Assembly: GCA_045637165.1 (NCBI GenBank)
Contig: JAZTYU010000002.1
Coordinates: 1 to 59,585 of the forward strand
DNA: 59,585 nucleotides
Origin: Candidatus Enterousia sp.
GTDB taxonomy: Bacteria; Pseudomonadota; Alphaproteobacteria; Rs-D84
Reading direction: 5' to 3'
Made by a program: the position numbers and the translations under genes. Positions 6,650 to 52,089 of the stretch are shown here, piece after piece (position 1 is the stretch's first letter; every line of letters starts with the position of its first letter). The notes beneath the pieces are model-generated. The model was not told the DNA's origin. It saw only the letters and a program-made list of their open reading frames with translations, and did no database searches.

Positions 6650-6652
6650 AAA

Positions 6653-7195
6653 ATGAAAGCAAATGGTATTGGTGGTGCAAACACTAAAACAGGATTAGTT
6701 TTTGAAGGTAAAACAGACTTGCGTACATTCCTGTGTAGTCAGCCGGGATATGATTGTGTTGATGACAAACGTGGCTGGGTTTCTGTTTTGTACCAAGATA
6801 AAGAAGTAGCATCTATTTTCAAGAAAACGGCATTATATAAATTCTTGGAATACCGTGGCGTTGATTGGAAAACAATATTGTCAAAACGCTTGTTGCCAGA
6901 TGATTCTATCTATGTAGTTATCAATAACACATTTTTTATCATAGAATGTAAATTTCAACAGGTTGCTGGTTCTGTTGATGAAAAATTACAAACTTGTGAC
7001 TTTAAGAAAAAACAATATAAGAAATTGCTGGCGCAGTTAAATATGGAAGTTGAATACATCTATTTGTTAAGCGATTGGTTCAAACAGCCATGTTATCAGG
7101 ATGTATTGGATTACATTATATCAGTTGGATGCTCATATTATTTTGAATATATACCATTACAGAAATTTGGTTTGCCGGTTCCGAAAGGCGATTAA
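6653..7195 (+). CDS. Putative small type II restriction endonuclease (PD-ExK)
   Basis: LLPDDSIYV ... FFIIECK gives a PD-(D/E)xK arrangement. Starts 3 nt after the MTase stop. Confidence 0.55.
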   Translation: MKANGIGGANTKTGLVFEGKTDLRTFLCSQPGYDCVDDKRGWVSVLYQDKEVASIFKKTALYKFLEYRGVDWKTILSKRLLPDDSIYVVINNTFFIIECKFQQVAGSVDEKLQTCDFKKKQYKKLLAQLNMEVEYIYLLSDWFKQPCYQDVLDYIISVGCSYYFEYIPLQKFGLPVPKGD

Positions 7196-7210
7196 GATAT
7201 AAGGAACGAT

Positions 7211-11900: not shown

Positions 11901-12019
11901 TAAGTTGTATCCGTTGAAATTACCTGGCGTTGGGTAATTGTTTCAGCCATTGCCGGCATTATAAATAACGCAGGCAAGACTGATACACCAATCAAAGTAT
12001 TGTAAAAGTGTTTTTTCAT
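8942..12019 (-). CDS. Autotransporter with polymorphic-membrane-protein (Pmp) type GGA[ILV]/FxxN repeats
   Basis: Signal peptide MKKHFYNTLIGVSVLPALFIMPAMA. More than 10 GGAI/GGAV plus FSGN/FTNN repeats. C-terminal beta-domain ends RYEF. Confidence 0.85.
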   Translation of the reverse strand: MKKHFYNTLIGVSVLPALFIMPAMAETITQRQVISTDTTYTDAVAENIASTTANNGGVFYMQDVPDVVLAFQGETLFSGNSLNNGGMGGVIGNGWLASTSGSGYTQGGKILFAGPTTFADNSTNNANGGGAIFNYGMGNATNPDIIFFEDAEFANNLVTQSMNGVYAGGGAINHRNGMIIFNGAANFSGNESASQGGAVLSAGDIIFNGPTSFANNTATKNGGALAIMGGNTTFDAATTFTKNSAGGASAIYLSENAQTLEFKGTAIFSENSGVGTLLNNSANASVIFANGADFNNNTNTYNGALVNTGNVSLSAGDMTFTNNTGSNGGGLKNSGTITADTTGKILFSSNTTTSTAGALDNGGSITFDASQISFTGNKSDSGYGGAIFNAGDLTLLSAKNTFSNNVASDTGNIKSGGGAIHNRGNTNTASLIIGTSDSVNTFTSNKSNAYGGAIVARAFDGDTANSDIVVNGTTTFSGNTSAMDGGAIWNAVAADNGTTGTSTIVFNGNTTFRNNSAGGIGGAVYNNDTMTFNGTTVFSGNTAGGVANDIHNDGTVNFNGDTTLNGGITGTGTLNIASGTTLNIGTSDITQGAIALDGTMLATLRSGETGQITVNNDGGFTGNGKLKLSFDHAGTYQVFGNQTFDNVDISSSVYDLTWNGGAVTATTKSVSDIAQENNITQDTARVISSVSESSSARLNDLSVAFQEKLSSGTPSDLASVEQTGLAINPERAAIPQSVATSSQHTISTLLSNRLAMSGLGRSGGDANLDFGGVWAQGLYNKSKLNDNFNGYTRGVALGVDGTINEVWTLGMGYMFAHSDISAISRDTDVDSSTVFVYGQYKPSQWYASAIVNYTMSDYNERGRAFNVGVTSDYDIDTFGARLASGYDFIGGITPELAMEYMHINSSDYTNSLGIKNHMDGADYLTASLSTKYEFDIFMNNGWIIRPQLHYAIKYDLISDENTMLVSMPGVNSYVLNSQHLSRIANEVGLGIGTNYNGLEISLNYDIQARSNYTSQTGRMNFRYEF

Positions 12020-12897: not shown

Positions 12898-12926
12898 TTC
12901 AAAAAATCCGCCTTTTGTGCTATAAT
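12898..12926 (+). promoter_or_regulatory. Candidate promoter with an extended -10 (TGcTATAAT)
   Basis: TTCAAA (12898-12903), 17-nt spacer, TATAAT (12921-12926) preceded by TGC. Confidence 0.35.
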
Positions 12927-12949
12927 TGTCCAGAAACAAGGATTTTTCT

Positions 12950-17053: not shown

Positions 17054-17659
17054 TTATTTACGTTTGTCTTTGCGAACCAAGACATAGCCCAAGCCTGCAA
17101 CCAAGACAATCAGCAAGCCCCAGAACCAAACTACGCTGCCTTCACTTTTTTTTTCGGCATCGACAGCTGGTTCAGCTGCTGTTTCTGATTCTGCAACTGT
17201 TTCAGCAGCAACAACATATTCTGAAATTGCGTTTACACGGTCTGCATGTTCTGCCTTGAACTTTTCTGCGTCTTCGGACATTGCCTTTTTGTTTTCAGCA
17301 GCCGCTGCCTTTTGTTCATCAGACAAGTCTACTTCGATATGCTGACGCAATGTGTCCTGCATAAAGTCTGCATAACCCTGTTCGCATTTATCACCAATTA
17401 CAATTACAGGAACACCACCATTGTCGAATTTGCATTCTGTTAATGCTGTCTGGAATTTTTCAGAATTTGCAGGTTCCATAACATTGACTTCTGTGACCTT
17501 TAATTCAGGATATTCGTAAATCAATGTGCTGGAAATGAATTCACGTGCGTGATGACAGTGTGGACAGTGTGGTGAATGATAAATTGTGATGTCCGCAGCA
17601 GACGCAGCACCAATAAAAGACATACCTAAGATTGCTGATAAAAATGATGTTTTTTTCAT
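17054..17659 (-). CDS. Secreted thioredoxin-fold protein (CPHC) with a C-terminal TM anchor
   Basis: Signal peptide, ITIYHSPHCPHCHHAREFI, GVPVIVIG, acidic linker, VVWFWGLLIVLVAGLGYVLV. Confidence 0.7.
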   Translation of the reverse strand: MKKTSFLSAILGMSFIGAASAADITIYHSPHCPHCHHAREFISSTLIYEYPELKVTEVNVMEPANSEKFQTALTECKFDNGGVPVIVIGDKCEQGYADFMQDTLRQHIEVDLSDEQKAAAAENKKAMSEDAEKFKAEHADRVNAISEYVVAAETVAESETAAEPAVDAEKKSEGSVVWFWGLLIVLVAGLGYVLVRKDKRK

Positions 17660-29824: not shown

Positions 29825-31348
29825 TTAAAATGAATATTTAAAGCCCAAATGCAAACCAAACGACTGCCAGGTTGCGTGCTTTAACGACTCGGACACTTTT
29901 TCTGTGTGGGCAGGAACAGTTTCCAGCAATGGAACATAATAAACATTGCCATAGTCGTCAAAGACTTCTTCCATAACATACTGTCCGTTTTCATCAATTA
30001 CATACTGGCTGTATTCGGCAATGTATAATTCCCCAGGAATTTTACCAACATGAAACAGATTTGTATCAACCTTTAACGCAAATTGCAAACGGTCGGACAA
30101 ACGGTAATTATATTCCATTTCTGCAATGTATGAATATGCACCATTGCTGCCTTCGTCCAAGAAACTAGGGTTCTGTTGCCAGTCTGTGCGATTTGGCCAG
30201 ATACCTTCGGATGAATACTTTGGCAGACCAAATTGAACATAAAAACGCAATTTATCTTTCAGGGTCATTTGCTTTTCTGCTTCTAACCCGACATAGAAAC
30301 CAGACCAAGTTGTGTTGTATTCGTGGGTTGTTCCTTCGACAACGATTGGACCATCACCACCGATAATCACACACTCGCCAGCGTTTACACCCCATGGAAT
30401 ATCACCCATTGCAATTTCATAATCGCCAGTCACCAATGAATTGCCCAGATATGGAAATCCTTCGACGGTTGCACCAGACGATGCATTTGTTACAACCTTG
30501 ATATCTTCGGGCGACATACATACCTGATACCAATCATCAGGTGGTGTCGCACCAATTGGAACAGAAAAATATTCACCCAATTCATTTCCATACACATAAT
30601 ACCCCTGGTCTGTCATCAAGGGCAGATAAATTCCGGGGTTTGGATAATAATGGTTGGACATTTCCAGGTTATGCTTGAATATTTCATATCCAAACGTTGG
30701 CGATAATTTCCAGCCCCCAACATCCCAGATATGATGTGCAGACACGCCAAAACGGAAATGATTACTGCGACCAGATTGGTCCCCCATTGAAATTGTAAAG
30801 ATTCCATAGCCAGGGTCAGATTCATCAAACGGCTTTAAGTCATAGTCCATAGACAGACCACCGTGCGACATTTCACCATAAACATATTCGCCATAGAACG
30901 ACAAATCAAAATTACGCAGTGTAAAATTATGATGGGCACCAACATGGATTTCATTCCAAACCATGTCGTCCCATTCAAGTATAGAATTTACACCTGTTTC
31001 AAATTCAAAATCAGAAAAACGACGAGAATACCCAAGATACATTGCGGTTTTGGGTTCCATTTCCGCAGGCATTGCAATGCCGTTGGCCGTCATTGTGCCG
31101 ACAAATGTGGGTTCTTGGATTTGCGGACGTGGAACTTGATAAGAATAAGAACGTGAGCCAATAACCTGTTTATTCCCAGATTTACCAACATATTTTGTAT
31201 ATCCCTGGTCGGCATATTGACCATACGCAACCTGATTTGCGGTCGGGGCAGACGATGTTTGATAATACGCAGGCACACCCTCGTTCGCAGCAAACGCCGC
31301 AAACGGTGTAATAATCCCCGATAAAAATAGAATTGACCTTGCCTTCAT
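29825..31348 (-). CDS. Outer-membrane beta-barrel protein, unknown family
   Basis: Signal peptide MKARSILFLSGIITPFAAFA, alternating aromatic pattern, C-terminal FKYSF. Confidence 0.7.
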   Translation of the reverse strand: MKARSILFLSGIITPFAAFAANEGVPAYYQTSSAPTANQVAYGQYADQGYTKYVGKSGNKQVIGSRSYSYQVPRPQIQEPTFVGTMTANGIAMPAEMEPKTAMYLGYSRRFSDFEFETGVNSILEWDDMVWNEIHVGAHHNFTLRNFDLSFYGEYVYGEMSHGGLSMDYDLKPFDESDPGYGIFTISMGDQSGRSNHFRFGVSAHHIWDVGGWKLSPTFGYEIFKHNLEMSNHYYPNPGIYLPLMTDQGYYVYGNELGEYFSVPIGATPPDDWYQVCMSPEDIKVVTNASSGATVEGFPYLGNSLVTGDYEIAMGDIPWGVNAGECVIIGGDGPIVVEGTTHEYNTTWSGFYVGLEAEKQMTLKDKLRFYVQFGLPKYSSEGIWPNRTDWQQNPSFLDEGSNGAYSYIAEMEYNYRLSDRLQFALKVDTNLFHVGKIPGELYIAEYSQYVIDENGQYVMEEVFDDYGNVYYVPLLETVPAHTEKVSESLKHATWQSFGLHLGFKYSF

Positions 31349-32509: not shown

Positions 32510-34492
32510 ATGGAAAGTAAATTTTGGAACTTTATAGGCGTGGTTGCGGTGTTGACTGCAATCGTTTGGGCACACAATGCAACAAAGGAGAAAGTGGTGA
32601 GTGCAGGTATCAAAATCGAAAATATGGACATGTCAATCAAACCAGGTGATGATTTCTATGCATATGCAAACGCAGGCTGGCAAAAACACAATCCAATCCC
32701 AGACGACTATTCAAGATACGGTGCTTTTGAAGTATTACGCAACACTAACCTGGAACGCACACGTGAAATTGCAGAAAACGATAATGGTAAAATTGGCCAA
32801 CTGTATAGCATTGCAATGGACGAAAAGAAACTAAACCAAGACGGCGTCCAACCTGTGTTGCCACTGTTTGCCCAAATCGACAAACTGGAACGCAAAGACT
32901 TGGAAAAATACCTGGGACAAATGCACAAGTTTACATCTGCTTTTTGGGGTGACGGTGTTGCACTGGACGAAATGGACAGCGAACACTATCTGTATAACAT
33001 TGGTCAAGGTGGACTGGGGTTGTCCCGTGATTACTATTTTGATACAGACGCAAAAACAGTTGAAGTCCGCAAAAAATATCGTGAATTTATTGAAAAGCAG
33101 ATGAAGAACTTTGGCATAGCAGTTGACGTAGATAAGTTGTATTCACTGGAAGAAAGAATGGCAAAATCGTTCTATCCCAAAGAAAAATTACGTGATCCTC
33201 ATGCAAACTATCACAAGATGAGCATTGAACAAATCAAAGAAAAGTTCCCTGGCTTTGATTGGGATACGTTCCTGACCACACGTGGTGCAAGGGCAGCGAA
33301 ATTTATCAACATTGCACAACCCGAAGCGATTGCAGAATCAATCGCAATTATGAACGATACTGATTTCGAATTGGTTAAAACATATTTGAAATACAGAATT
33401 GTCAGTGCAGCAGACACGGTTTTGGACGACAAGACATATGATATATCTTTTGATTTCTATAACCGAACAATGGCCGGACAGAAAGAACAAAAACCACGTT
33501 GGAAACGTGCAGTCGCAACGCTGGACGGTTCGCTAGGCGAAGAAATTGGCCGCCTGTATGTTGAAAAATACTTTTCATCAGACGCCAAAGAGCGCATGCA
33601 GACATTGGTAAAAAACCTGCAACGTGCATACGCAATGCGTATTGAAAAACTGGAATGGATGTCTGATAAAACAAAAGTAAAAGCACTGGAAAAACTGGCA
33701 GGATTCACGGCAAAAATTGGATATCCAGACAAATGGCGTGATTATTCAAAACTGGAAATCAAAAATGATTCGTTGTGGGAAAATATGATGCGTGTTTCAG
33801 AATTTGAAGACGCATTCTGGATTGAAAAAATCGGTCAGGACAAAGACCCTACAATCTGGTATATGAACGCACACGAAGTCAACGCATATTATGACCCATC
33901 AACAAATGAAATCTGTTTCCCGGCTGGAATCTTGCAATATCCGTTCTTTGACATGGGAGCAGACGATGCATTTAACTATGGTGCAATCGGTGCAGTTATC
34001 GGTCATGAAATGACACACGGATTCGATGATTCTGGCCGTCACTTTGACAAAAACGGCAATATGAAAGACTGGTGGACCAGTGAAGACGCTGAAAAATTCA
34101 ATGAACGTGCCGGCACAATGAAGGAATATTTCGATAAAATCAAAATCAATGACGAAGTCTTTGCAAATGGCGAATTCACGCTGGGCGAAAATCTGGCAGA
34201 CTATGGTGGCGTAACGATTGCATTTGATGCATATAAAAACTTTGGCACACCATCGGGCGATGCAGAAAGCATCAGTGCAGACAGACGCTTCTTTATCGCA
34301 TACGCAGGGGCGTGGGCACAGAACATTCGCCCAGACGAAGAATTACGCCTGACCAAGGTTGATGAACATTCACTGGGCAAAAATCGTGTAAACGGAATAC
34401 TGCCACACATCAACGCATGGTATAGCGTATTTGACATAAAATCAGACGATGGATTGTATGTATTACCTGGGGAACGTGTAAAATTATGGTAA
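32510..34492 (+). CDS. pepO: M13 family zinc metallopeptidase (PepO/neprilysin-like)
   Basis: VIGHEMTHGFD (HExxH), GENLADYGG (ENxADxGG). Confidence 0.9.
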   Translation: MESKFWNFIGVVAVLTAIVWAHNATKEKVVSAGIKIENMDMSIKPGDDFYAYANAGWQKHNPIPDDYSRYGAFEVLRNTNLERTREIAENDNGKIGQLYSIAMDEKKLNQDGVQPVLPLFAQIDKLERKDLEKYLGQMHKFTSAFWGDGVALDEMDSEHYLYNIGQGGLGLSRDYYFDTDAKTVEVRKKYREFIEKQMKNFGIAVDVDKLYSLEERMAKSFYPKEKLRDPHANYHKMSIEQIKEKFPGFDWDTFLTTRGARAAKFINIAQPEAIAESIAIMNDTDFELVKTYLKYRIVSAADTVLDDKTYDISFDFYNRTMAGQKEQKPRWKRAVATLDGSLGEEIGRLYVEKYFSSDAKERMQTLVKNLQRAYAMRIEKLEWMSDKTKVKALEKLAGFTAKIGYPDKWRDYSKLEIKNDSLWENMMRVSEFEDAFWIEKIGQDKDPTIWYMNAHEVNAYYDPSTNEICFPAGILQYPFFDMGADDAFNYGAIGAVIGHEMTHGFDDSGRHFDKNGNMKDWWTSEDAEKFNERAGTMKEYFDKIKINDEVFANGEFTLGENLADYGGVTIAFDAYKNFGTPSGDAESISADRRFFIAYAGAWAQNIRPDEELRLTKVDEHSLGKNRVNGILPHINAWYSVFDIKSDDGLYVLPGERVKLW

Positions 34493-34518: not shown

Positions 34519-34695
34519 GTTGTCCAATTGTCGAATTTACCAGGAACAAAACAAGAGAATTTGCTGTTTCTGATTTTGAAAGGAACAACACGTTTTTATA
34601 CAAAAATATGCAACAATACCCTATTTCTGGACTTGGCAGGGATGATAAATGGCGGTGAGATGATGTTTCCCTATTCCTGCCTTCGCAGGCATGAC

Positions 34696-34712
34696 AAAAA
34701 AAAGGGGGGGGG
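34696..34712. repeat. A8-G9 homopolymer tract in a 367-bp spacer
   Basis: Counted directly: gacAAAAAAAAGGGGGGGGGcagg. Confidence 0.9.
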
Positions 34713-34810
34713 CAGGACCGCAGGAAAAATATTGATAAAATTTTTTATGTTCTGTGATAATGCAGTAAAAAAACCTCGGGCTTACGCCCGGGGTCTTACG
34801 TCGAAAAAGA

Positions 34811-34840
34811 TAAAAATCCCCCAAACGGGGGATTTTTTTA
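34811..34840. terminator. Bidirectional terminator downstream of paralogue A
   Basis: Stem ATCCCCC/GGGGGAT (34816-34822/34827-34833) between A5 and T7. Confidence 0.6.
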
Positions 34841-34859
34841 ACAATCCAGCAAATTAGGC

Positions 34860-36941
34860 TTATTCTGTTTCGGTTCCATCTGTTTCGGTTCCGCTCGTAT
34901 TGGTTTCTGGATAAAGCACACTATTAACCCAGTTTTCCATTGCTGTTGGTTTTGGCGTCTCGGTTGAATCACCATTTACAGACATACATGTAATAATATC
35001 CTTGCGGCATGCGTTGATTGCAATGTTCACGGAACTGCCACCCTTTACATAGTTATTCGATGACAGACATGACGATACGTCAGATATACAATTTGTTGCA
35101 TAATCTAACAATACTGCATCCTGGGCCGCCTTGATCTGAACCAATGTGCGATACATATATTCTTTGACCACATTGTTATTTGGCAGATAATTACCATTGT
35201 CATCATAGGTCAGTTTCTGACACTTGTTCAGGACAGACATACACATTCCATAATTTTTGCCGTCTTTGTTATAACCAATCTTATACTGCAGATACTTTGA
35301 CATATTGCTGTTGGTTGAATCAAGTTTTTCGACAGCATTTGTATCAACCGTTTTATCAACATAATCTGTCAAGGTTCCATCATCTGTCGTATTTCCCCAC
35401 GCAGATTTACTACCAGCATAGGTCCAAGCAGAATATAGCGTGTTTGTGGAGTATGGATCCGACGGTGAAGATACTTCTTCGTCATTTGCATCTATTGCAT
35501 AACCAGGCATTGAACCAACGACAACTTCGCCGTTTACGATATATTTGCCGGTTGGGTCCAGACAGTATTCATAATCTGTTCCACAGACAAAATCGTCCTG
35601 CATACATGAATCCAATGCATTTACACAGCCACGCAGGTCATAAGAATTTTTATTCTGGGCAACCATTAAACGGGCACGTTGTAATACCCCCTTGGCATTG
35701 CGGACAGTTTGCGACATTTCTTCGTTTGTATCTGTCAACTGACGTTCATATACCACGCACTGTTTGTCAATTTCCAAATCATATGCGTTCGAAATGATTG
35801 AGATGTCAACACCCTTGTCCTGACAACTTTCCAGAACGGCCTTTTTACAACGGGCAGCCGCAGTCTTATACAACTGTTCGCCACGCTGGTTGCTGATGCT
35901 GGATGTGTTTGACGATGTTGTCCCGAACAGCGATGTTAAATCAAACCCCGTGCTGTTGACACTGAAATCCAACAAGCCAGACAAATCAAAACTCATATCC
36001 ACTTCGGATGATGTTGCGGCAGAACCCTTGACATCAACCAACAGTTTTTTGATTTTGTCCAAATCGTTTTTCAGACGTGAACTGTCAGACGTTTGTTGCA
36101 TTTCAAGTTCAGCCTCGGTCTGGGTGAACAGTGTTTCAATTTCATCACTGGTCAGGCCGATATATTGAATCTGTTGGGCAACATCCTTTAATGCCTCGGT
36201 CGCTTCTTTTAATGCGGTTTCAGTCTTTTCATAATTCTTGATATTTTTTGAACATGAACAACGTCCCTGGTTATCGTCCAAGACATTACAGAAATTATCC
36301 ATACAGTCGGTATATTGTGCCTTGCAGAAATCAGTCAGCTGTGCCAACTCGTCCATTTCAGCAGCCGCCGTGGCAGCATCAACTGTGCTACTGGTCGTTG
36401 TTGAAACATTACCAGAAACCGATGTAATTGTTGGGATACGTGCACGAACCGCACTGGCACGTGAACTGACCCGACCGGTATATAATGGGGTGCGAACAGT
36501 ATCAGTTTGAACAATCGCCGCACGGGCAGACGTGCCGTTATTTTGCATTGCCTGGCGTGTTGTGGCAATCTGGGTCGCACCAGAACGTGCCACCGAACGA
36601 GATGCAACACGTGACGCACCAGAGCGTGCCACATTTGAATTTGAAACATTACGCGAGGTTGTCGCACGTGTAGCCGCCGAACGTGATTTCACAGTCCCAG
36701 CCCCAGTCCCAGCCGGCATTGCACGTGAAGACGCCGCATTTGACGCACGCAACGCACGGGCAGTTGTCTGAGAAACCGGCACCGCAACAGCAGCGGCATC
36801 AATTTCATCGACATCCATTTCGACATCACCAGCAACATCGACAGCATCATAATCAGATTCCATTTCATAATAAAATGGTGCAATTTCGGCATACGCAGGT
36901 AATACAAGCACCCCACTTAAGACGGCTAAAAATCTTTTCAC
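34860..36941 (-). CDS. Secreted Cys-rich coiled-coil protein, paralogue A (693 aa, GTG start)
   Basis: Signal peptide MKRFLAVLSGVLVLPAYA, acidic segment, Ser/Arg/Ala/Thr-rich basic low-complexity region, CMDNFCNVLDDNQGRCSC core. Confidence 0.8.
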   Translation of the reverse strand: MKRFLAVLSGVLVLPAYAEIAPFYYEMESDYDAVDVAGDVEMDVDEIDAAAVAVPVSQTTARALRASNAASSRAMPAGTGAGTVKSRSAATRATTSRNVSNSNVARSGASRVASRSVARSGATQIATTRQAMQNNGTSARAAIVQTDTVRTPLYTGRVSSRASAVRARIPTITSVSGNVSTTTSSTVDAATAAAEMDELAQLTDFCKAQYTDCMDNFCNVLDDNQGRCSCSKNIKNYEKTETALKEATEALKDVAQQIQYIGLTSDEIETLFTQTEAELEMQQTSDSSRLKNDLDKIKKLLVDVKGSAATSSEVDMSFDLSGLLDFSVNSTGFDLTSLFGTTSSNTSSISNQRGEQLYKTAAARCKKAVLESCQDKGVDISIISNAYDLEIDKQCVVYERQLTDTNEEMSQTVRNAKGVLQRARLMVAQNKNSYDLRGCVNALDSCMQDDFVCGTDYEYCLDPTGKYIVNGEVVVGSMPGYAIDANDEEVSSPSDPYSTNTLYSAWTYAGSKSAWGNTTDDGTLTDYVDKTVDTNAVEKLDSTNSNMSKYLQYKIGYNKDGKNYGMCMSVLNKCQKLTYDDNGNYLPNNNVVKEYMYRTLVQIKAAQDAVLLDYATNCISDVSSCLSSNNYVKGGSSVNIAINACRKDIITCMSVNGDSTETPKPTAMENWVNSVLYPETNTSGTETDGTETE
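35499..36356 (-). repeat. Near-identical core shared with paralogue B (copy 1)
   Basis: Aligned by eye to 37885-38744 (offset about 2.39 kb). Includes 50 identical residues ELEMQQTSDSSRLKNDLDKIKKLLVDVKGSAATSSEVDMSFDLSGLLDFSV. Confidence 0.8.
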
Positions 36942-36985
36942 GGCTTAATCCTTCCCTCTAGTTATGTTTCATTTTATCACATTAC

Positions 36986-37000
36986 GCAATGCAATGCAAT
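36986..37000. repeat. (GCAAT)x3 pentanucleotide repeat in the 5' leader of paralogue A
   Basis: acGCAATGCAATGCAATtg read directly. Confidence 0.85.
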
Positions 37001-37012
37001 TGAAAAAAGGTA

Positions 37013-37021
37013 ATTATAGCA
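37013..37021 (-). promoter_or_regulatory. Extended -10 element (TGcTATAAT) for paralogue A
   Basis: Minus-strand TGCTATAAT about 72 nt upstream of the GTG start. No good -35. Confidence 0.3.
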
Positions 37022-37040
37022 AAAAATCTGAAAAAAATTA

Positions 37041-39320
37041 TTATTCAACAGGACTCTCACCGCTCCAACTACCATTCGCCGTAAATAGATGCGTCCCACT
37101 TGGTGATGTATCGCACCACTTCCTTTGTTCTTCTGAGGCCCCAGAACAGGAACATCCGTAATTTGTAGTATAATCCGTTCTAGCACCACTTGTCCAGGTT
37201 GGACACAAACACCCATTCTGTTCCGCGTCCCATGTTCCGCCCTTGCAAGAAACACAGGCCGAACCATTATGGTAATAATACTCAGAGCAGCCCACTGAAA
37301 CAGGGTCATCACTGCCTGATGAAACAGAGTTAATCGCAGCAACCCAATTCTTCATTGCTGTTGGCTCTGGCGGCTGGGTTGAATCACCATTTACAGACAT
37401 ACATGTGACAATCTCGGCACGGCACGCATTGATTGCGATGTTGGCCTTGCTATTGCTTGTGCTATCATAATTATTTGATGACAAACAAGACGTGACATCG
37501 GATATACAACCGGATGCATAATCATGCAAAATCGAATCTTGGGCCGCCTTTATCTGAATCAATGTGCGACGCAGGTATTCACGGATTACCTGGTTATCAG
37601 GCTGATATTTGCCGTTGTTGTATGTGATATCCTGACACTTATTCAAGACAGACATACACATTCCATAATTCTTTTCCCCGTCATTATAGCCAATTTTATA
37701 TTGCAAATTTTTCGCCATATTTGCATCAGCCTTGGTCACAGCCGACGTGCTGACGTTTTTATCGATATAATCCGATATTTGACCAGACGTTCCCCAGACA
37801 TAGGTATTGTCATAATACCATGTACCATATAGAGTATCCTTGGAATAATCAGTTGATGGCGATGGAACCGTTGAACTACTGATAACATAACCAGGCATTG
37901 AACCAACGACAACTTCGCCGTTTACGATATATTTGCCGGTTGGATCCAGACAGTATTCATAGTCAGAACCACAAACAAAATCGTCCTGCATACATGAATC
38001 CAATGCATTTACACAGCCACGCAGGTCATAAGAATTTTTATTCTGGGCAACCATTAAACGGGCACGTTGCAGAACACTTTTTGCGTTGCGGACAGTTTGC
38101 GACATTTCATCGTTTGTATCGGTCAACTGACGTTCATAGACTACACATTGCTTGTCAATTTCCATATCATAAGCATTGGATATAACAGATATATCAACAC
38201 CCCGGGATTCGCATGTTTCCAAAACCGCCTTTTTACAACGGGCGGCCGCCGTCTTGTACAACTGTTCGCCACGCTGGTTGCTGATACTGGATGTGTTTGA
38301 TGACGAACCACCAAACAATGACGTCAAATCAAAGCCGGTGCTGTCAACACTGAAATCCAACAGACCAGACAAATCAAAACTCATATCCACTTCGGATGAT
38401 GTTGCGGCAGAACCCTTGACATCAACCAACAGTTTTTTGATTTTATCCAAATCATTTTTTAGACGAGAACTGTCAGACGTTTGTTGCATTTCAAGTTCCG
38501 CTTCGGTCTGAGAAAACAAGATTTCGATTTCTTCACTGGTCAGGCCGATATATTGAATCTGTTGGGCAACATCCTTTAATGCCTCGGTCGCTTCTTTTAA
38601 TGCGTTTTCGGTCTTTTCATAATTCTTGACATTTTTTGAGCATGAACAACGCCCCTGGTTATCATCCAAGACATTACAGAAATTATCCATACAGTCGGTA
38701 TATTGCGTCTTGCATGATGCGGACAATGTTGCTAATTCATCCATTACTGCAACAACATCTGTGGCCGATGCGGATGCCGCATCCGTTGCCGAAGACACAT
38801 TGCCAACCGTCGTCGAAATCGTTGGAACACGTGCACTGACCGAACGAGCAGTATTTATATTTGGATTTACAGGCGTTGCAATACGACGTGCGGCCGCCTT
38901 TGGCGTTGATACTGGCACAGCACTGTGCACAGTGCGTGATGCGACACGTGATGAAGCCGCAGAACGTTCAGCAGAACGTGCAATCGTATTTGCCACAGCA
39001 CTGCGTGCAACAGTCGAACCGGAAACATTACGAGACGTGGTTGTCGCACGGGTCGAAGCAGAACGTGTATTTGGTGTCGTCCCTGCCCCAGCAGGCACAG
39101 CACGTGAAATCGACGACGCCCCAGCACGTGGATTGCGCGATGAAGCCTGGGCCACAGGAACAACAAATGCTGCAGTATCAACATCATCGACATCTGGTTC
39201 ATTTTCGCCAACAATGCCAACAGCAAAAGAATCAGACCCAGCATCATCGTAAACCAGCACAGCCTGGGCGTATGCAGGTAAAATTAAAATACCGCTAAGA
39301 ACCGCTATAAACCTTTTCAT
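37041..39320 (-). CDS. Secreted Cys-rich coiled-coil protein, paralogue B (759 aa) with an extra Cys-rich C-terminal module
   Basis: True start MKRFIAVLSGILILPAYA at 39320 after AGGAAAGG. Same architecture as A. Tail CSEYYYHNGSACVSCKGGTWDAEQNGCLCP... Confidence 0.8.
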   Translation of the reverse strand: MKRFIAVLSGILILPAYAQAVLVYDDAGSDSFAVGIVGENEPDVDDVDTAAFVVPVAQASSRNPRAGASSISRAVPAGAGTTPNTRSASTRATTTSRNVSGSTVARSAVANTIARSAERSAASSRVASRTVHSAVPVSTPKAAARRIATPVNPNINTARSVSARVPTISTTVGNVSSATDAASASATDVVAVMDELATLSASCKTQYTDCMDNFCNVLDDNQGRCSCSKNVKNYEKTENALKEATEALKDVAQQIQYIGLTSEEIEILFSQTEAELEMQQTSDSSRLKNDLDKIKKLLVDVKGSAATSSEVDMSFDLSGLLDFSVDSTGFDLTSLFGGSSSNTSSISNQRGEQLYKTAAARCKKAVLETCESRGVDISVISNAYDMEIDKQCVVYERQLTDTNDEMSQTVRNAKSVLQRARLMVAQNKNSYDLRGCVNALDSCMQDDFVCGSDYEYCLDPTGKYIVNGEVVVGSMPGYVISSSTVPSPSTDYSKDTLYGTWYYDNTYVWGTSGQISDYIDKNVSTSAVTKADANMAKNLQYKIGYNDGEKNYGMCMSVLNKCQDITYNNGKYQPDNQVIREYLRRTLIQIKAAQDSILHDYASGCISDVTSCLSSNNYDSTSNSKANIAINACRAEIVTCMSVNGDSTQPPEPTAMKNWVAAINSVSSGSDDPVSVGCSEYYYHNGSACVSCKGGTWDAEQNGCLCPTWTSGARTDYTTNYGCSCSGASEEQRKWCDTSPSGTHLFTANGSWSGESPVE
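37885..38744 (-). repeat. Near-identical core shared with paralogue A (copy 2)
   Basis: See 35499-36356. Nucleotide runs such as acttcggatgatgttgcggcagaacccttgacatcaaccaacagtttttt are identical in both copies. Confidence 0.8.
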
Positions 39321-39441
39321 AAATAAAAGACCTTTCCTGTTATTTTCTTTTATTTTATCACAATACAAGATAAAAATTAACACAAAAATCACAACTATTA
39401 TGAACTTGTTCCTAGATTATTAAAAAATATAATGAATTTAC

Positions 39442-39505: not shown

Positions 39506-41095
39506 TTGAATATATTAAAAAAAGTTTCGTTATGGATTCTGGCACTGCCACTGATGGGCTGCACAACCGTCCCAACCACGACGAATGATGCACGCTTAGA
39601 CGATTATCGTCCAAAAATCACAGCGTCTGATTTTGATTATGACCCATACAAAACACCAATCGCAATATGTTATGCTGATGAACTTAGTCAAAATCCTGAC
39701 ACATCAGGTGCAACGCTTATCGAAGATGGATTGTCTGCATTTGTAATACGGTCTGCCTTTGCCAGAATGGCAACTAAAACGATTGATTTACAGACCTATA
39801 TTTACAGCAATGACTTTTCATCCAAGGTTCTGATTGGTGAACTTAAAAACGCCGCAGACCGTGGGGTCAAGGTTCGAATACTGGTTGATGACTATGGGAC
39901 AAAATCTGACATCGTTGATGTTATGCTGTTAAACCAACACCCAAATATAGAAGTCAAGGTTTTTAACACTGTTCGAAACCGTTCTAAATTACTGTATTAT
40001 CCACAGTTTTTAGCGGACTTTAACCGACTAAATTCACGTATGCACAACAAACTGTTCATCGTTGATAATATCGTATATATCACAGGCGGACGCAACGTTG
40101 GCAGCAACTATTTCTATCCAGAAACAGCGTCAAACTTTTCAGATACCGACGTGCTGTTTATCGGCGATATGACACGCTATGCCACCGACAGTTTTAACGA
40201 ATACTGGAATCATCATCTGTCGATACCTGCCGCCGTTTTTCCAAAGGCAAAATCAAAAAAGGCAATGCGTAAACTGGAACGCACATTCGAAGAAATCGAA
40301 AAACGAAGTGCCGAAGACGTTCGCAGATACAATACTATTATTTCAATGGCACAACGTGAATTCAAACAAAAAAGACTCGATTTCAGTTGGGGACGTGGAA
40401 AATTCTTGGCAGACCCACCACAAAAAGTCGAAATGTCTATGGATGAAAAAGAACAATATCGTGGCGAAATTGTTCGGGCGTTGCAACATCTGTGGGACAA
40501 AACGAACAAATCGGTCTATATGTCAGCAGCATATTTTGTGCCAGGACAAGGTGGCTTGGAACACATGTTAAATGAAGAAAAATCAGGCGTTCACCTGACC
40601 ATTGTAACAAATTCGTTAGCATCAACCAATGCACCAACAGTGTATGCAAAATGGGAAAAATACAGAAAACACTTGATTGAATCTGGTGCAGACGTTTATG
40701 AATTTATGGTTTCTGCTGAAAATCTGCGTGGCAAGGAACACGACCGTGAACGTAAACAATCAAGCTTTTCCGTTCTGCACAGCAAGACAATGGTGTTTGA
40801 TGATAACATTTCCTGGATTGGCAGTTTTAACCTGGACCCCAGAAGTGCATATTACAACACAGAAAATGTAGCAATCTTTGAAAGCCGTGATTTCGCAGAC
40901 AAATTACGTGAAATGATCATCAAAGACACACAAACATCATGGCGGGTCAGCCTGGACGAAGACAACGCCCCAATATGGACCGGGAAACGACCAGGCGACG
41001 AAAAGCCACGAATCCATAAACACGCACCAGACACTGGGATTTTACGCAGAATCTGGAAAAACATTTGTAATTTGGTTCCTGAAAAATTCGTTTAA
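39506..41095 (+). CDS. Phospholipase D / cardiolipin-synthase-like lipoprotein (two HKD motifs)
   Basis: Lipobox LPLMGC. HNKLFIVDNIVYITGGRN and HSKTMVFDDNISWIGSFN. TTG start after AAGGAAG. Confidence 0.85.
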   Translation: MNILKKVSLWILALPLMGCTTVPTTTNDARLDDYRPKITASDFDYDPYKTPIAICYADELSQNPDTSGATLIEDGLSAFVIRSAFARMATKTIDLQTYIYSNDFSSKVLIGELKNAADRGVKVRILVDDYGTKSDIVDVMLLNQHPNIEVKVFNTVRNRSKLLYYPQFLADFNRLNSRMHNKLFIVDNIVYITGGRNVGSNYFYPETASNFSDTDVLFIGDMTRYATDSFNEYWNHHLSIPAAVFPKAKSKKAMRKLERTFEEIEKRSAEDVRRYNTIISMAQREFKQKRLDFSWGRGKFLADPPQKVEMSMDEKEQYRGEIVRALQHLWDKTNKSVYMSAAYFVPGQGGLEHMLNEEKSGVHLTIVTNSLASTNAPTVYAKWEKYRKHLIESGADVYEFMVSAENLRGKEHDRERKQSSFSVLHSKTMVFDDNISWIGSFNLDPRSAYYNTENVAIFESRDFADKLREMIIKDTQTSWRVSLDEDNAPIWTGKRPGDEKPRIHKHAPDTGILRRIWKNICNLVPEKFV

Positions 41096-41126
41096 CAAAA
41101 AACACGCCCAATCGGGCGTTTTTTTA
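41096..41126. terminator. Bidirectional terminator
   Basis: Stem ACGCCC/GGGCGT (41104-41109/41114-41119) with A and T flanks. Confidence 0.6.
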
Positions 41127-42770
41127 TTCATCCAACTTTGGAATAATCACAGTATCATTATAATGCGACAAGAAACGTTTACCTGTGGCACAATAAAACT
41201 TTTGCAGACTGTCCTTATACTCACGCACAGCAGAAACCCAACGTTCATCAATATCGCTTTGTGCACCCTGATATCCAGTAAATGCCCCCATCGCACCACC
41301 AACACCAGCACCAGTCAACGTGCTTTTCAGACGTGCCTTGTTATTCAAATCAATAATACCACCATCATCAGAATCCTGATAAACAGGACGGAAATTCACA
41401 GCCCCCAGAGTTATTGTTTGTTCCTGGTCTGACGATGTCCCAAGAACAACCGCTGCATCCAGATTTGTCGCAACACCATTACCAGAACGACCAACAACTA
41501 AATTTCCATTATAACGTGTTTTAAAATCCGACCATTCATCTTTGTGCCAGCCAAACGATTTATCCTGGACATCAACAACCATTGCTGCTGTGCGTTTTGT
41601 CACACGCTGGACAGAATCCAGTTCTATCCATGGACCATCTGTGCAATTCGCCCCCACAGTCATACCATTAACAACATCATAACAATACATATTTTGGACC
41701 AAAGCCCAATTTTCAGCCTGCATATCTGACAATTCCATTTTTTTGCCGTCAGACGCACGTTTTTTGCCGCTGTATTCCGCAACCACAGCCGATGTTAAAT
41801 CTGCACGCTCACACGTGGTGCCAGAACAAACACGAAAATCATTTACATTATTCGCCGAAACATAGGCTGTGCCATCTATGGCAGAAACTTCTTCGATAAC
41901 ACCCCAAAGGCATTTTGTATCCCTGCCCGCAACCTGACACGGTTCAATACGCAACACAGAATCACCACTGGCAACAATATTTCCAACAATACCACCGGCT
42001 GCCGCATTTACGCCCGTTGACAGAATTACATCGCCTGCAACCTTGCCCGCATAGGCATTACCTGCCATAAATGCAGCACCACCCAACGCACCGATAATCG
42101 TTCCCTGGGTCTTAGAACGACCACCACCCAACACCCCATCCTTACCCGGTTCGTTTTCACCAGCAATATTACCAGCCAAACCACCCAACACAGTTCCTGC
42201 AGCAATTTTTATCCCTGCATTTTGACGCTGCTCTTGATTCAGAACAGAAACAACATCATCAACGGTCGGTTCACGGTCAGCTGGAAATTCAACCATACCA
42301 GCGGCCGGTAACCACGACGCCTCGTTAAATTCGGATATATTACAGGAAAAACTGTCCCCTGCTGCCAGATTTGCACGTGCCAAAATTGCGTCTTCACCAT
42401 TTTCGCCGGCACCAATTGCACGCAATTCAACAACAGCCGTGCAGGTTGCTGCACCGCCAGAACCAGCCCCAAGCGTAGGCTTGCCCCAGGCAAATTCACC
42501 TTCGGGATAAATCATTGAACAACGCTGTGCTTTGGCCCCAACAGCCGTGTCATCTGTCGCAGACTTTACAACCGTCGTTGGCAAATCCACAGGAATTGCC
42601 GCAACCGCAGCCTGGGTTGCAAGTTCCGAGTTATAACGTGCTTCGCTAACCTGTTGATACCCCTGGGCGTTATTACGGGACAAATTACCAACACGAATAC
42701 CCGCCCCAGCAACGGTTGGTACCAATGCCGCTAACAACGAATAGTAAAAGATTGAATTTTTGCGTCTCAT
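41124..42770 (-). CDS. Secreted glycine-zipper protein (548 aa from the Met at 42770)
   Basis: Signal-like MRRKNSIFYYSLLAALVPTVAGA. GGLAGNIAG, IIGALGGAAFMAGNAYAG, AAAGGIVGNIVA and GAGVGGAMGAFTG zippers. Confidence 0.7.
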   Translation of the reverse strand: MRRKNSIFYYSLLAALVPTVAGAGIRVGNLSRNNAQGYQQVSEARYNSELATQAAVAAIPVDLPTTVVKSATDDTAVGAKAQRCSMIYPEGEFAWGKPTLGAGSGGAATCTAVVELRAIGAGENGEDAILARANLAAGDSFSCNISEFNEASWLPAAGMVEFPADREPTVDDVVSVLNQEQRQNAGIKIAAGTVLGGLAGNIAGENEPGKDGVLGGGRSKTQGTIIGALGGAAFMAGNAYAGKVAGDVILSTGVNAAAGGIVGNIVASGDSVLRIEPCQVAGRDTKCLWGVIEEVSAIDGTAYVSANNVNDFRVCSGTTCERADLTSAVVAEYSGKKRASDGKKMELSDMQAENWALVQNMYCYDVVNGMTVGANCTDGPWIELDSVQRVTKRTAAMVVDVQDKSFGWHKDEWSDFKTRYNGNLVVGRSGNGVATNLDAAVVLGTSSDQEQTITLGAVNFRPVYQDSDDGGIIDLNNKARLKSTLTGAGVGGAMGAFTGYQGAQSDIDERWVSAVREYKDSLQKFYCATGKRFLSHYNDTVIIPKLDE

Positions 42771-42838
42771 TACCTTTTGCCCCCTGCCGCAATGAATCAA
42801 CATAACCGGGCGTTCGCCCGGTGCGATTATTTCTTTAT

Positions 42839-43933
42839 TTAGAACTGTAATCTTAGACGAACGCCAATATCAACCAACCCCAGACGCCCACTTTCATACC
42901 AATTTGTATAATGGAATACACTGTCATACGGTGCCTCGTATTCACCGCCGGCACCATCACCCAACCATTCAATCTGACTTAACACGATACTGCCCGATGT
43001 TTTAACCGTCCCCAGGTTCGCATAACGGGCAAAAAAGTCCATTTTTATACCGCCTTCTAGTTCGGTTGTAATACCCGCTTCTAGCATAAAGGCCAATTGT
43101 TCGGTTGTGCCACCATTGTGATATGCATAAATATCAGAAATACCTGTCAACTGTCCGGCATTTGCATAGGCCGGGTCCATCACAGAATAAAAGGTATTAT
43201 CATAAACAACATAGTCTGCGATTGTATTTAATGAAATACCAACACCTGCACCAATATATGGACGCAACGACCCACCAGCCAAAAATCCTGTATAAGAGTC
43301 AATATTATAATAAACATTCAACATTGTCGCATTGGACGTGATTGCACCACCGTCAACCTGAGCCTCAACATAATCGCCGGCACCGTCGTCTGTTTGAACA
43401 GTATTTGGATAAGACAAACCCGAATAACGCAAATACGAAAAATCAACACGAACATCATTGTTCAATGCCGCACCAACAGAAACCTGAAGCGGAATCATTG
43501 TATCAGACTGAAAATCAGCGGCCTTGAATGCACCCGGAACAGTATAGGCATCTTCTTCACCAGTATAATCAGACGAAATTGACCCCATCACCGATGACGT
43601 ATAACCGACAGACAAACCAACATACAAACCGCTGTCCGCCAGCCGGTCATAATCCGCAGGCTGATAATACTGACGACCTGCCGTCGTTTGCGACGTGCCA
43701 ACACGTGGCAACGAACCAGTTACACGTGTTGGTTGGGCTGCAGCAACAGAATTATAGCCAGGCATCGCCGCCGCAGTTGACACAACACGACTGTTCACAG
43801 ATGGCAAATACATCGCCTGGTTATTTACACCGGTCGCTTGATATGACGGATACGCAGGATATGCCGCCCCCACCACCATTGGCAGTGCACACAAAACACC
43901 AGCAAACACGGTAGAAAAACAAAATTTCTTCAT
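42839..43933 (-). CDS. Outer-membrane beta-barrel protein (OmpA-like/porin-family barrel)
   Basis: Signal peptide MKKFCFSTVFAGVLCALPMVVGA. C-terminal RLRLQF. Confidence 0.75.
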   Translation of the reverse strand: MKKFCFSTVFAGVLCALPMVVGAAYPAYPSYQATGVNNQAMYLPSVNSRVVSTAAAMPGYNSVAAAQPTRVTGSLPRVGTSQTTAGRQYYQPADYDRLADSGLYVGLSVGYTSSVMGSISSDYTGEEDAYTVPGAFKAADFQSDTMIPLQVSVGAALNNDVRVDFSYLRYSGLSYPNTVQTDDGAGDYVEAQVDGGAITSNATMLNVYYNIDSYTGFLAGGSLRPYIGAGVGISLNTIADYVVYDNTFYSVMDPAYANAGQLTGISDIYAYHNGGTTEQLAFMLEAGITTELEGGIKMDFFARYANLGTVKTSGSIVLSQIEWLGDGAGGEYEAPYDSVFHYTNWYESGRLGLVDIGVRLRLQF

Positions 43934-50668: not shown

Positions 50669-51169
50669 TTATTTCCGTTTTTTTACCTTGCGCATAAGCA
50701 TTTCACGACGCAGGGGTGATAAATAATCAACAAACAACTTTCCGTCCAAGTGGTCTGTTTCATGCTGAACAATACGGGCAGGAACACCGGACATCTGGGC
50801 CGTCTTTGTTTCACCTGTTTCATCTGTCCATTCAACAATTACACTGTCAGGACGTGTAACATTTGCATAGACTGGCAAACCGTCCGTCCCCAGAACAGAT
50901 AAACACCCTTCTTCCATTGTGCAGGTAGAAGAACTGTGTGATAAAATACGTGGATTTATCATACGATAAACCGTTTCACTGTCTGGGTCCATCATTACCA
51001 AAAAACGAGAAAGAATACCAACCTGGGGGGCAGCCAAGCCAACCCCATTTTGTTGCCGCATCATTTCAACCATTTCGTCCATTGTCGCCAATAAATCAGG
51101 CGTTATGGATTCAACAGGCGAACACACTGTTCGTAAAACTAAATCACCACAAAGTTTCATTTGCAACAT
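50669..51169 (-). CDS. def: Peptide deformylase
   Basis: GVGLAAPQVG, EGCLS, HETDHLDG motifs. Confidence 0.92.
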   Translation of the reverse strand: MLQMKLCGDLVLRTVCSPVESITPDLLATMDEMVEMMRQQNGVGLAAPQVGILSRFLVMMDPDSETVYRMINPRILSHSSSTCTMEEGCLSVLGTDGLPVYANVTRPDSVIVEWTDETGETKTAQMSGVPARIVQHETDHLDGKLFVDYLSPLRREMLMRKVKKRK

Positions 51170-51210: not shown

Positions 51211-52089
51211 ATGACAACTTATATTTTTGTATTGTTATTCATTATTATTTTATTGTTGCTGGCTATTTTAATGCGAAGACCTGTGCTGGACTTTTCACCC
51301 CTGCGTGAAGATAATGCACGCCTGCGTGAACGATTGGCAGAACGATTGGGGGCATTAAACCAAAATGCAATTGAACTAAAAAATATAAGTGCCGACATTG
51401 CAAACTTTAAAAATATCTTGATGGGAAACAAGCAGGCACGTGGAACATTTGGTGAACGCCAACTGGAAGATTTGGTGCGGGATATTATGCCGCCAGAGAC
51501 ATACGCCTTTCAACACGTTTTGCCAGGCGGTGTGCGACCAGACTGTGTTATCAGATTGCCTTATCCACCAGGCGATATGGTAATTGACAGCAAATTCCCA
51601 CTGGAAAGTTATAACCGTATGATGGCTGATGCTAATGATGTAATCGCCAAAAGGCAATTCGAACAAGATGTTCGCAGGCATATTGACGCAATCGCAGAAA
51701 AATATATTATCCCTGGTCAGACTGCGGAATCTGCAATGATGTTTATTGCATCAGAATCAATTTTTGAATTACTGCACAGGAACTTTCCGGCAACAATTGA
51801 TTATGCAGCACGCCAGAAAGTATTTATTGTTTCGCCTGCAACGCTGTGGGCAACGCTAAACACTATCAGGGCTGTATTGTCTGATATCAAGATAAAACGT
51901 GTCGCCGCAAAGATAAAGACAGAACTGGACGCACTGTTGGGTGATTTAACCCGACTGAACGAGCGGGCAAACGATATTGAAAAACACTTTGCACTGGCTA
52001 ATGCAGACCTGGATAAAATTCAAATTTCTGTTGGTAAAATCGCCCCACGTGCAGAAAAACTGCGTAATATGGACTTTGGTGAAGAATAA
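51211..52089 (+). CDS. rmuC: DNA recombination protein RmuC (short form)
   Basis: GERQLEDLV, PDCVIRLP, VIDSKFPLESY, IMFIASESIF. Confidence 0.8.
   Translation: MTTYIFVLLFIIILLLLAILMRRPVLDFSPLREDNARLRERLAERLGALNQNAIELKNISADIANFKNILMGNKQARGTFGERQLEDLVRDIMPPETYAFQHVLPGGVRPDCVIRLPYPPGDMVIDSKFPLESYNRMMADANDVIAKRQFEQDVRRHIDAIAEKYIIPGQTAESAMMFIASESIFELLHRNFPATIDYAARQKVFIVSPATLWATLNTIRAVLSDIKIKRVAAKIKTELDALLGDLTRLNERANDIEKHFALANADLDKIQISVGKIAPRAEKLRNMDFGEE

Follow-up and report, generated by a model that had tools for sequence, protein, structure and literature searches.

Patchy gene conversion in the core of two old tandem paralogues for cysteine-rich, putatively exported proteins of Candidatus Enterousia

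Gene conversion causes the concerted evolution of some bacterial paralogues, such as tufA and tufB of Salmonella or the opa genes of Neisseria. Here we describe two tandem paralogues, which we will call A and B, from Candidatus Enterousia sp. (Alphaproteobacteria, order Rs-D84). They lie at 34860–39320 of a 59,585-nucleotide (nt) stretch of contig JAZTYU010000002.1 (assembly GCA_045637165.1); by "the window" we mean this entire stretch. As with tufA/tufB and opa, nonreciprocal recombination has homogenized stretches where the copies retained identity, so that identity within the genome exceeds identity to the orthologues. In contrast to those systems, just two short patches of A and B are homogenized, and the remainder is anciently diverged. 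Also, A and B have different ends and tails, so they are not functionally redundant. Taking everything together, we think it rather probable that A and B are old paralogues whose mosaic similarity combines a family-wide constraint with conversion of the core, and that they would encode exported, disulfide-stapled stalks.

Gene A (34860–36941, minus strand) encodes 693 amino acids (aa) from a GTG start, and gene B (37041–39320, minus strand) encodes 759 aa from an ATG start; the two open reading frames fill the interval. A first-pass annotation had described two genes on the same strand, of these lengths and with one shared architecture, and both the reading frames and the domain layout bear it out. 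Overall, the proteins are 68% identical across 678 aa (BLASTP). The core (35499–36356 in A and 37887–38744 in B) aligns without gaps at an offset of 2388 nt and is 88.5% identical in nucleotides and 92% in amino acids. The annotation had placed the core correctly to within 2 nt, but "almost identical" at the nucleotide level was an overstatement, as only two sub-tracts reach about 93%. A run of 50 identical residues, also claimed, is really 55 aa long, and the core includes identical runs of 95, 80, 72, and 58 nt. The N-terminal parts are 44% identical (56% in nucleotides) and the C-terminal domains are 63% identical (67% in nucleotides), so the N-terminal parts and the last third do diverge, as the annotation had said. 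At the register of +2388, identity in 60-nt windows drops from 0.98 to 0.30 at position 35499 of A and from 0.83 to 0.47 near position 36340.

The two homogenized tracts are both on the minus strand. Tract 1 (about 350 bp; 35977–36329 in A and its partner 38365–38717 in B) is 93.2% identical, and tract 2 (about 245 bp; 35498–35741 in A and its partner 37886–38129 in B) is 93.4% identical. Between the tracts, A and B are 79.6% identical. We compared A and B to their orthologues in the close relative L001 (GCA_045613785.1), which also has a tandem pair. At 4-fold degenerate sites, identity between the copies is 0.44 in the window versus 0.42 in L001 for the N-terminal part, 0.57 versus 0.43 for the C-terminal domain, and 0.735 versus 0.48 for the core. 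Unconverted comparisons of the core range from 0.39 to 0.51; between orthologues, the values are 0.64 for A and 0.43 for B. In nucleotides, the core of B is 88% identical to A, 84% identical to the L001 orthologue of A, and 81% identical to its own orthologue. Synonymous divergence (dS) between the window's copies is 0.42 for aa 196–312 (36006–36356, which overlaps tract 1), 1.39 for aa 313–400, and 0.30 for aa 401–478 (35508–35741). The corresponding values for the L001 pair are 1.26, saturated, and saturated. Elsewhere in the genes, the copies have a dS of about 1–2.

Site patterns among these four genes also change along the sequence. For aa 1–200, the numbers of sites that support orthology, within-genome similarity, or the other grouping are 119, 6, and 4; for aa 201–475, they are 29, 22, and 7. 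Within the core, about 75 sites are unique to the L001 orthologue of B and about 17 are unique to B itself. We also considered codons that encode the same amino acid in all four genes but vary in the codon used. In a permutation test, the synonymous matches between A and B were clustered (longest run of 14, P = 0.009; maximum score, P < 1e-4), while the same test found no clustering in the L001 pair. As for direction, B carries A-type sequence in tract 2, because dS between B and the L001 orthologue of A is just 0.67 there, while both A and B are saturated relative to the L001 orthologue of B. So, in this genome, two stretches of the core have been homogenized between the copies by nonreciprocal recombination. 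Silent-site identity is higher within the genome than between orthologues, and it is higher in discrete tracts, which is how gene conversion is recognized. The annotation's suggestion of gene conversion is upheld: synonymous identity between A and B is raised in the core only and, relative to L001, in this genome only. Conversion is probably limited to the core because only there did A and B retain enough identity to recombine.

The duplication itself is old and shared. In L001, the gene order is PLD, a gene of 764 aa, a gene of 734 aa, and M13, which corresponds to PLD, B, A, and M13 in the window, and L001 has orthologues of both A and B. For the N-terminal part, nucleotide identity between orthologues is 87% for A and 69% for B, versus 54–56% across copies. 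Of 82 loci, 9 have tandem pairs. Two of these, L001 and L004, represent a single place, and in L026 a contig end cuts the upstream copy, which leaves seven related genomes with complete pairs. In five more of these (L013, L016, L022, L031, and L040), the N-terminal types form two groups that follow gene position. The orthologues in L001, the grouping of N-terminal types by copy, and the dS of about 1–2 outside the tracts all imply an old duplication.

These data bear on two other explanations for the mosaic. The annotation had proposed a recent duplication, whose ends would have diversified rapidly afterwards, and the high identity of the cores and the similar 5' regions of A and B might suggest this. 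However, both copies have orthologues in L001, N-terminal types sort by copy in five further species, and dS outside the tracts is far from recent at about 1–2; furthermore, the cores of the L001 pair are just 79% identical in nucleotides, with 4-fold identity (0.48) near that of comparisons without any sign of conversion (0.39–0.51). We find a recent duplication hardly credible. A stronger challenge is that the mosaic might reflect differences in purifying selection, with no gene conversion at all. The conserved core and the divergent ends are seen in all eight tandem pairs (79–92% amino acid identity for the core and 32–59% for the N-terminal region), in every single-copy orthologue, and across 88 diverse members of the family; in the alignment of these 88 members, column entropy is low across aa 193–472 and rises steeply at aa 473. 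The core is also about as conserved as the adjacent PLD gene. Most of the amino acid mosaic is indeed a constraint profile of the entire family, with strong purifying selection on the 283-aa cysteine-rich core (ratio of nonsynonymous to synonymous divergence, or dN/dS, of about 0.02–0.1). So the annotation's account of the mosaic as a product of gene conversion holds for the homogenized core but not for most of the amino acid pattern. Given the silent sites, though, purifying selection is not sufficient. Selection on the protein does not explain a 4-fold identity of 0.735 where unconverted comparisons give 0.39–0.51, or a dS of 0.30–0.42 in two tracts and 1.39 between them, or the clustering of synonymous matches in the window pair and not in the L001 pair, or why B, in its core, resembles A more than its own orthologue. 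One could invoke selection on codon usage or mRNA structure within the tracts, but the L001 pair speaks against it. We therefore consider purifying selection alone to be improbable. Some points do weigh against our account of the conversion: the quartet tests depend on a single close relative with a pair; the direction of conversion cannot be read for tract 1, as the window pair is equidistant from both L001 copies; and the excess of sites unique to the L001 orthologue of B could partly be due to allele replacement in L001. Other pairs have dS troughs of their own (in L040, 0.24 for aa 401–478 and 0.64 for the C-terminal domain; in L013, weaker), so patchy conversion recurs in the family.

Gene conversion between paralogues is also known from cassette-based antigenic variation, such as Msp2/P44 of Anaplasma, pilE/pilS of Neisseria, and VlsE of Borrelia. 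There, a single expression site has its variable region converted by cassettes that are silent and lack promoters. Like A and B, they have a paralogous family with gene conversion and mosaic sequences, and their products are surface proteins. Unlike the cassettes, A and B are both full length and both have a ribosome-binding site and a promoter-like box of their own, and it is the conserved core that is converted. With both genes complete, the tracts in the core, and no further partial copies or silent cassettes in the window (by tblastn), we ruled out a cassette-type locus. Repeat scans of the locus found no invertible element, no shufflon-like inverted repeats, and no phase-variable tracts; they found only the A/B paralogy and two short tandem repeats within coding sequence.

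A and B belong to a lineage-specific family of Candidatus Enterousia and the order Rs-D84, gut Alphaproteobacteria whose genomes are roughly 0.9 Mb in size. The closest relatives are hypothetical proteins from metagenome-assembled genomes (MAGs) of gut bacteria that are labeled as Candidatus Enterousia, Alphaproteobacteria bacterium, or Rickettsiales bacterium. In an exhaustive HMMER search, 628 clusters (at 50% identity) reached E ≤ 1e-3, and 201 of them reached E ≤ 1e-30. We also scanned the GTDB species, with a single genome for each, and detected 186 stretches that encode a relative. A gene of the PLD family is within the flank at 65 of the 82 loci, and four further loci have the M13 gene only. 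Compared to A, and leaving aside L001 and L004, the relatives are 64–83% identical in the core, 30–51% in the N-terminal region, and 41–60% in the C-terminal domain, while their PLD genes are 72–88% identical to the window's. We found no literature on this protein, just surveys of Enterousia genomes. We rejected an origin from a mobile element, as there was no match to plasmids or to PHROGs and the chromosomal position is conserved.

The shared cysteine-rich module has 18 cysteines in both A and B, and all 18 are invariant in the alignment of 88 members. The unusual N-terminus is also general. Across 221 members, the 35 residues that follow the signal peptide carry a net negative charge in 83%, and the rest of the N-terminal region carries a net positive charge in all of them. 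The C-terminal extensions, on the other hand, vary greatly in length: in the 110 representatives whose sequence spans the module, they are at least 100 aa long in 80, at least 300 aa in 39, and at least 1,000 aa in 6, and the longest has 1,672 aa. In the 40 longest tails listed, the cysteine content is 3–11%. Several long tails are made up of repeated C..GGTW(D/N)..C.C units, which match the tail of B several times, although weakly, so B seems to be a typical member of the family and A a tail-less one. The L001 orthologue of A does have a cysteine-rich tail. The extensions of two long members (P0227 and P0231) contain Flg_new (Listeria-Bacteroides repeat) domains, which are typical of surface proteins.

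Tandem pairs are not the only source of extra copies. Some Enterousia genomes have two dispersed copies, which may be about 12 kb apart and in divergent orientation (L036 and L037 on JAZNBN010000016.1) or on different contigs (L009/L028, L059/L077, and L033/L052). Copy number thus varies beyond the tandem pairs. In a MAG labeled Rickettsiales (L083, 3109–10391), the family gene comes directly after an operon on the same strand for TolC, a MacA-like protein, an ABC protein, and MacB-FtsX. We considered this operon as a clue to secretion and dropped the idea, as it is absent from L084, L085, and the Enterousia loci.

It is in the ends of A and B that related genomes differ. The flanking genes of the window are 86–99% identical to those of L001 (in nucleotides), and sliding identity across the locus shows islands of divergence (the first three within genes, minus strand): the N-terminal region of B (38713–39003, 61–67%), the tail of B (37081–37230, 51%), the C-terminal domain of A (34885–35461, 57–74%), and the 3' end of A together with the downstream spacer (34597–34884, 47–51% with gaps). 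In amino acids, the C-terminal domain of A is 56–59% identical to its own L001 orthologue (the value varies with the alignment), and no protein that we retrieved exceeds 62%. Silent sites of this domain are nearly saturated relative to the orthologue (4-fold identity of 0.38 and dS of 1.56), versus a dS of 0.35–0.51 for the N-terminal segments of A. From this comparison, the domain is probably a divergent allele that replaced an earlier one, rather than sequence that changed quickly in place.

Low-complexity parts also change in length. A 15-nt tandem repeat (1.9 copies, 34864–34892, minus strand) encodes the GTETx tail of A, and a second short in-frame repeat of 6/12 nt lies at 36692–36714 of the same gene. 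Contigs from a bovine gut metagenome (run X3) have indels at these repeats, namely an insertion of 30 nt and a deletion of 6 nt, which implies that the low-complexity parts of A differ in length between strains. The window's strain is present in bovine gut metagenomes at low depth and on short contigs, which yielded a few indel variants. A search for RNA runs yielded none. Overall, the ends change between related genomes by allele replacement and small indels. Nevertheless, dN/dS is below 1 in every segment (about 0.65 in the disordered region and 0.2–0.35 in the C-terminal domain), so positive selection is not demonstrated. The annotation was right that the ends are what differs, but these ratios give its term "diversifying" no support in the sense of selection.

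Protein A begins with a signal peptide (aa 1–18) and an acidic patch (aa 19–57, net charge −12). These are followed by a basic disordered region that is rich in Ser, Thr, Ala, and Arg (aa 58–195, 36357–36770; net charge +15; 65% of residues are one of these four), the cysteine-rich core (aa 196–478, 35508–36356), with 12 invariant cysteines and mostly long helices, the C-terminal domain (aa 479–675, 34917–35507), and a short acidic tail of Thr, Gly, and Glu (aa 676–693). In B, the acidic patch has a net charge of −9, the basic disordered region (38745–39149) has a net charge of +13, the core is at aa 193–475 (37896–38744; gap-free relative to the core of A), and the C-terminal domain is at aa 476–663. 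Only B has the cysteine-rich tail, as the annotation had noticed; it comprises 96 aa (aa 664–759; 37041–37331 with the stop codon) and has 8 cysteines. All of these features are on the minus strand. The N-terminus, MKRFLAVLSGVLVLPAYA followed by E, looks like a cleavable signal peptide: it ends in LPAYA before E in A and before Q in B. Neither protein has the lipobox of a bacterial lipoprotein, and the first cysteine is residue 206 of A or 203 of B. The frame of gene B is open further upstream, to a GTG at 39392. We prefer the ATG at 39320, as it yields the MKRF signal peptide that is common to all homologues; it also has a ribosome-binding site and is downstream of the promoter-like box.

This box, TGTGATAAAAT, is retained upstream of both genes, in agreement with the annotation, at 36971–36981 for A and at 39352–39362 for B (both on the minus strand and 30–40 nt from the start codon). 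The window has three exact copies, versus 0.16 expected. We read the box as an extended −10 promoter element (TGnTAAAAT). The sequence TTGCAT is 17 nt upstream of the box of gene A, and the boxes are followed by ribosome-binding sites (GAGGGAAGG for A and AGGAAAGG for B). The core of the box is kept upstream of homologues (TGGTAAAAT and TGATAAAAT in L001, and TGATAAAAT in L002). The third copy (50937–50947, plus strand) is within a deformylase gene on the opposite strand and is 264 nt upstream of a gene of the RmuC family (51211–52089); it may be due to chance or be another promoter. Just 3' of the stop codon of A, there is a terminator-like hairpin (34812–34837, minus strand) with an 11-bp stem and then a run of T.

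We found no sequence or fold relative for this family, so the annotation's failure to recognize a characterized family stands. No curated family in Pfam, NCBIfam, or PHROGs matched A, B, the tail of B, or the family members at the cut-offs. The best sub-threshold matches (FTA4, Laminin_II, LcrG, and arylsulfatase) are far below the cut-offs and lie on coiled-coil segments, and among 24 members that we scanned, nothing was consistent except for sub-threshold FTA4. Searches of PDB sequences (phmmer and profile hmmsearch) found nothing below E = 1.6. AlphaFold2 models of aa 190–693 of A (from 24 sequences; predicted local distance difference test, or pLDDT, of 66.6) and of aa 193–759 of B (from 88 sequences; pLDDT of 77.8, and mostly above 90 in the C-terminal domain) consist mainly of long helices, with a few small hairpins. 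When these models were compared to the PDB with Foldseek, the best hits were to generic coiled coils (E = 2.1 and 2.3), and the best hit in BFVD had E = 0.098.

One segment of the core, FDLSGLLDF...GFDLTSLFG...SISNQRGE (aa 303–345 of A, about 35907–36035; aa 300–342 of B, about 38295–38423), is well conserved and yet is predicted to be disordered, with a pLDDT of 30–50 in both models. Our guess is that it is a motif for binding a partner or for interacting with a membrane. Neither protein has an autotransporter barrel (PF03797 or its relatives), and the modeled C-terminal domain is helical; a true autotransporter elsewhere in the window, at 8942–12019, was readily detected. The tail of B has no match in Pfam, and neither do the long tails, apart from Flg_new in P0227 and P0231. 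The similarity of B's tail to a small protein of the Ephrin_rec_like type in L002 was not significant (E = 0.058).

What might such proteins do? Members of the uncultured order Rs-D84, which includes Enterousia (MAGs of about 0.75–1.0 Mb), have reduced genomes; they ferment, and they lack the tricarboxylic acid cycle, respiratory chains, and the standard uptake transporters (PMC12306168). Enterousia is probably dependent on a partner (PMC12306168). We propose that A and B would be exported by the Sec pathway and cut by signal peptidase I, and that each would become a long helical stalk, with nine conserved disulfides, as it folds in the periplasm. Attachment to the anionic cell envelope could be through the disordered Arg-rich region, and the variable cysteine-rich C-terminal module might be presented outside, in which case A and B would differ in the distal end that they offer. 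In this proposal, they would serve as envelope or attachment proteins of a partner-dependent symbiont, for contact with the host or the partner. Export and disulfides are suggested by the signal-peptide-like N-terminus, the even number (18) of invariant cysteines, and the 8 additional cysteines in the tail of B. Genes for signal peptidase I and for a protein with a CPHC motif (17054–17659) are also in the window, which would fit with export and oxidative folding. Display at the surface, as read from these features, fits a reduced-genome organism that depends on a partner, and we see it as a reasonable candidate at somewhat less than even chances. More speculatively, and we are doubtful here, the family could be the attachment organ of Rs-D84 and Enterousia: the modeled helices might represent a new disulfide-stapled fold, its cysteine-rich modules (0 to about 1,700 aa) might recognize the host or the partner, and paralogue number, tail swapping, and conversion of the core might diversify this recognition.

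One analogy for such an envelope protein is OmcB of Chlamydia. OmcB is a cysteine-rich envelope protein with a beta-rich fold; its basic N-terminal region is exposed at the surface and binds host glycosaminoglycans, and its disulfides stiffen the envelope. A and B resemble OmcB, by analogy only, as putatively exported cysteine-rich proteins with a basic N-terminal region. Also as in Chlamydia, the window encodes an autotransporter with Pmp repeats and a Pom porin-like protein. However, there is no relationship in sequence or fold: the model for the A/B family is helical, and the OmcB-type families (which we take to be Chlam_OMP6 and the DUF11 repeats) were not matched by A, B, or family members at the Pfam-A cut-off or among the sub-threshold matches. 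Cysteine-rich repeats also make up surface proteins such as the variant-specific surface proteins of Giardia and those with Ephrin_rec_like or GCC2_GCC3 repeats, and disulfide-rich ectodomains are expected to resist gut proteases. The family may resemble these in style, with its variable C-terminal extensions made of short cysteine-rich repeats. Unlike them, the tail of B and the long tails do not match such Pfam repeats.

We also considered that the family might be a housekeeping component of the periplasmic envelope, such as a tether or scaffold between the outer membrane and the cell wall, whose variable ends are merely unconstrained. The annotation's second alternative, a structural family of the envelope, may likewise apply. 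Several observations weigh against our proposal and fit this role equally well. The family is nearly universal (186 stretches among the scanned genomes of GTDB species), it has a fixed chromosomal position (with a PLD neighbor at 65 of the 82 loci), and its core is conserved like the neighboring enzymes. Envelope-related genes are nearby (for an SLT transglycosylase, the Pom porin-like protein, and the M13 peptidase). And the protein has no beta-barrel, no lipobox, no transmembrane anchor, and no known signal for secretion across the outer membrane; since no feature explains passage through the outer membrane, a purely periplasmic location is possible. On the other hand, extensions of cysteine-rich repeats that reach about 1,700 aa, and Flg_new domains in two members, are hard to fit in the periplasm. 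A housekeeping role also sits less well with the variable copy number (several genomes have extra copies, either in tandem or dispersed) and with the quick turnover of alleles for the C-terminal domain and the tail. We therefore rate it as rather unlikely. The conserved N-terminal two-thirds, the great variability of the C-terminal extensions, and the unlike C-termini of the tandem paralogues are also reminiscent of polymorphic toxins or effectors, in which a conserved N-terminal delivery module carries interchangeable toxic domains and tandem copies serve as alternative warheads. But A, B, and five long members have no toxin, immunity, or secretion-system domains, and no small immunity-like reading frame follows either copy: A is followed by the hairpin and the convergent M13 gene, and B is followed by the promoter of A. 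Furthermore, the tails are cysteine-rich repeats instead of compact enzymatic domains, and the N-terminus is of the Sec type, where we would expect, from general knowledge, a T5, T6, or T7 (type V, VI, or VII secretion) feature in a polymorphic toxin. A toxin thus seems very unlikely, and an exported, disulfide-stapled stalk is still the explanation that we prefer.

A and B lie between two genes on the plus strand, one for the M13 peptidase (32510–34492) and the PLD-family gene (39506–41095). The rest of the window is ordinary chromosome, with rpoB/rpoC, CTP synthase, ComEC, signal peptidase I, RNase III, and others, and includes the envelope-related genes mentioned above. The Pom-like protein (29825–31348, minus strand, 507 aa) matches Pom, the Protochlamydia outer membrane protein; it is conserved in L001 and is found beside a family gene in the distant locus L085. 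The autotransporter at 8942–12019 (minus strand, 1025 aa) has a C-terminal beta-domain and Chlamydia Pmp-type repeats. The protein with the CPHC motif (minus strand, 201 aa) has a signal peptide, a glutaredoxin/thioredoxin-like fold that contains the motif, and a C-terminal hydrophobic anchor. CPHC is presumably the active-site sequence of DsbA, and we consider this protein a candidate periplasmic disulfide oxidoreductase, in an organism that is reported to lack respiratory chains. Two more candidates for envelope proteins are beside the PLD gene: a Gly-rich, cysteine-containing protein of 559 aa with a signal peptide and no family (41124–42803, minus strand), and a protein of 364 aa with a weak match to Surface_Ag_2, an outer-membrane barrel (42839–43933, minus strand). 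A plus-strand gene at 12926–15115 encodes 729 aa with no match in Pfam and no signal peptide; its C-terminal two-thirds consists of units of about 40 aa (with LNPNA..I.L and FDFSGVKKL). Finally, a small islet for defense or restriction-modification at 2034–8305 encodes a DUF4435 and AAA_21 protein, D12-class and N6_N4 methyltransferases, a PD-(D/E)XK nuclease, and PIN_8.

The gene conversion is ordinary by itself, as it is concerted evolution that is restricted to a conserved segment. Still, this tandem pair shows, cleanly and on a small scale, how conversion stays within the segment that is under constraint while the paralogues diverge. The family is more interesting than the conversion: it is found across the order, has no relative that we could find, and combines invariant cysteines with giant variable tails. 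The bacteria of Enterousia and its order are uncultured and common in the gut; their genomes are under 1 Mb, and they have no obvious route for feeding themselves (PMC12306168). A large, apparently exported, cysteine-rich protein that is lineage-wide, sometimes duplicated, and equipped with variable extensions is a candidate for making contact with a supporting partner, and proteomics, structural work, and binding studies would have a concrete target in this family.

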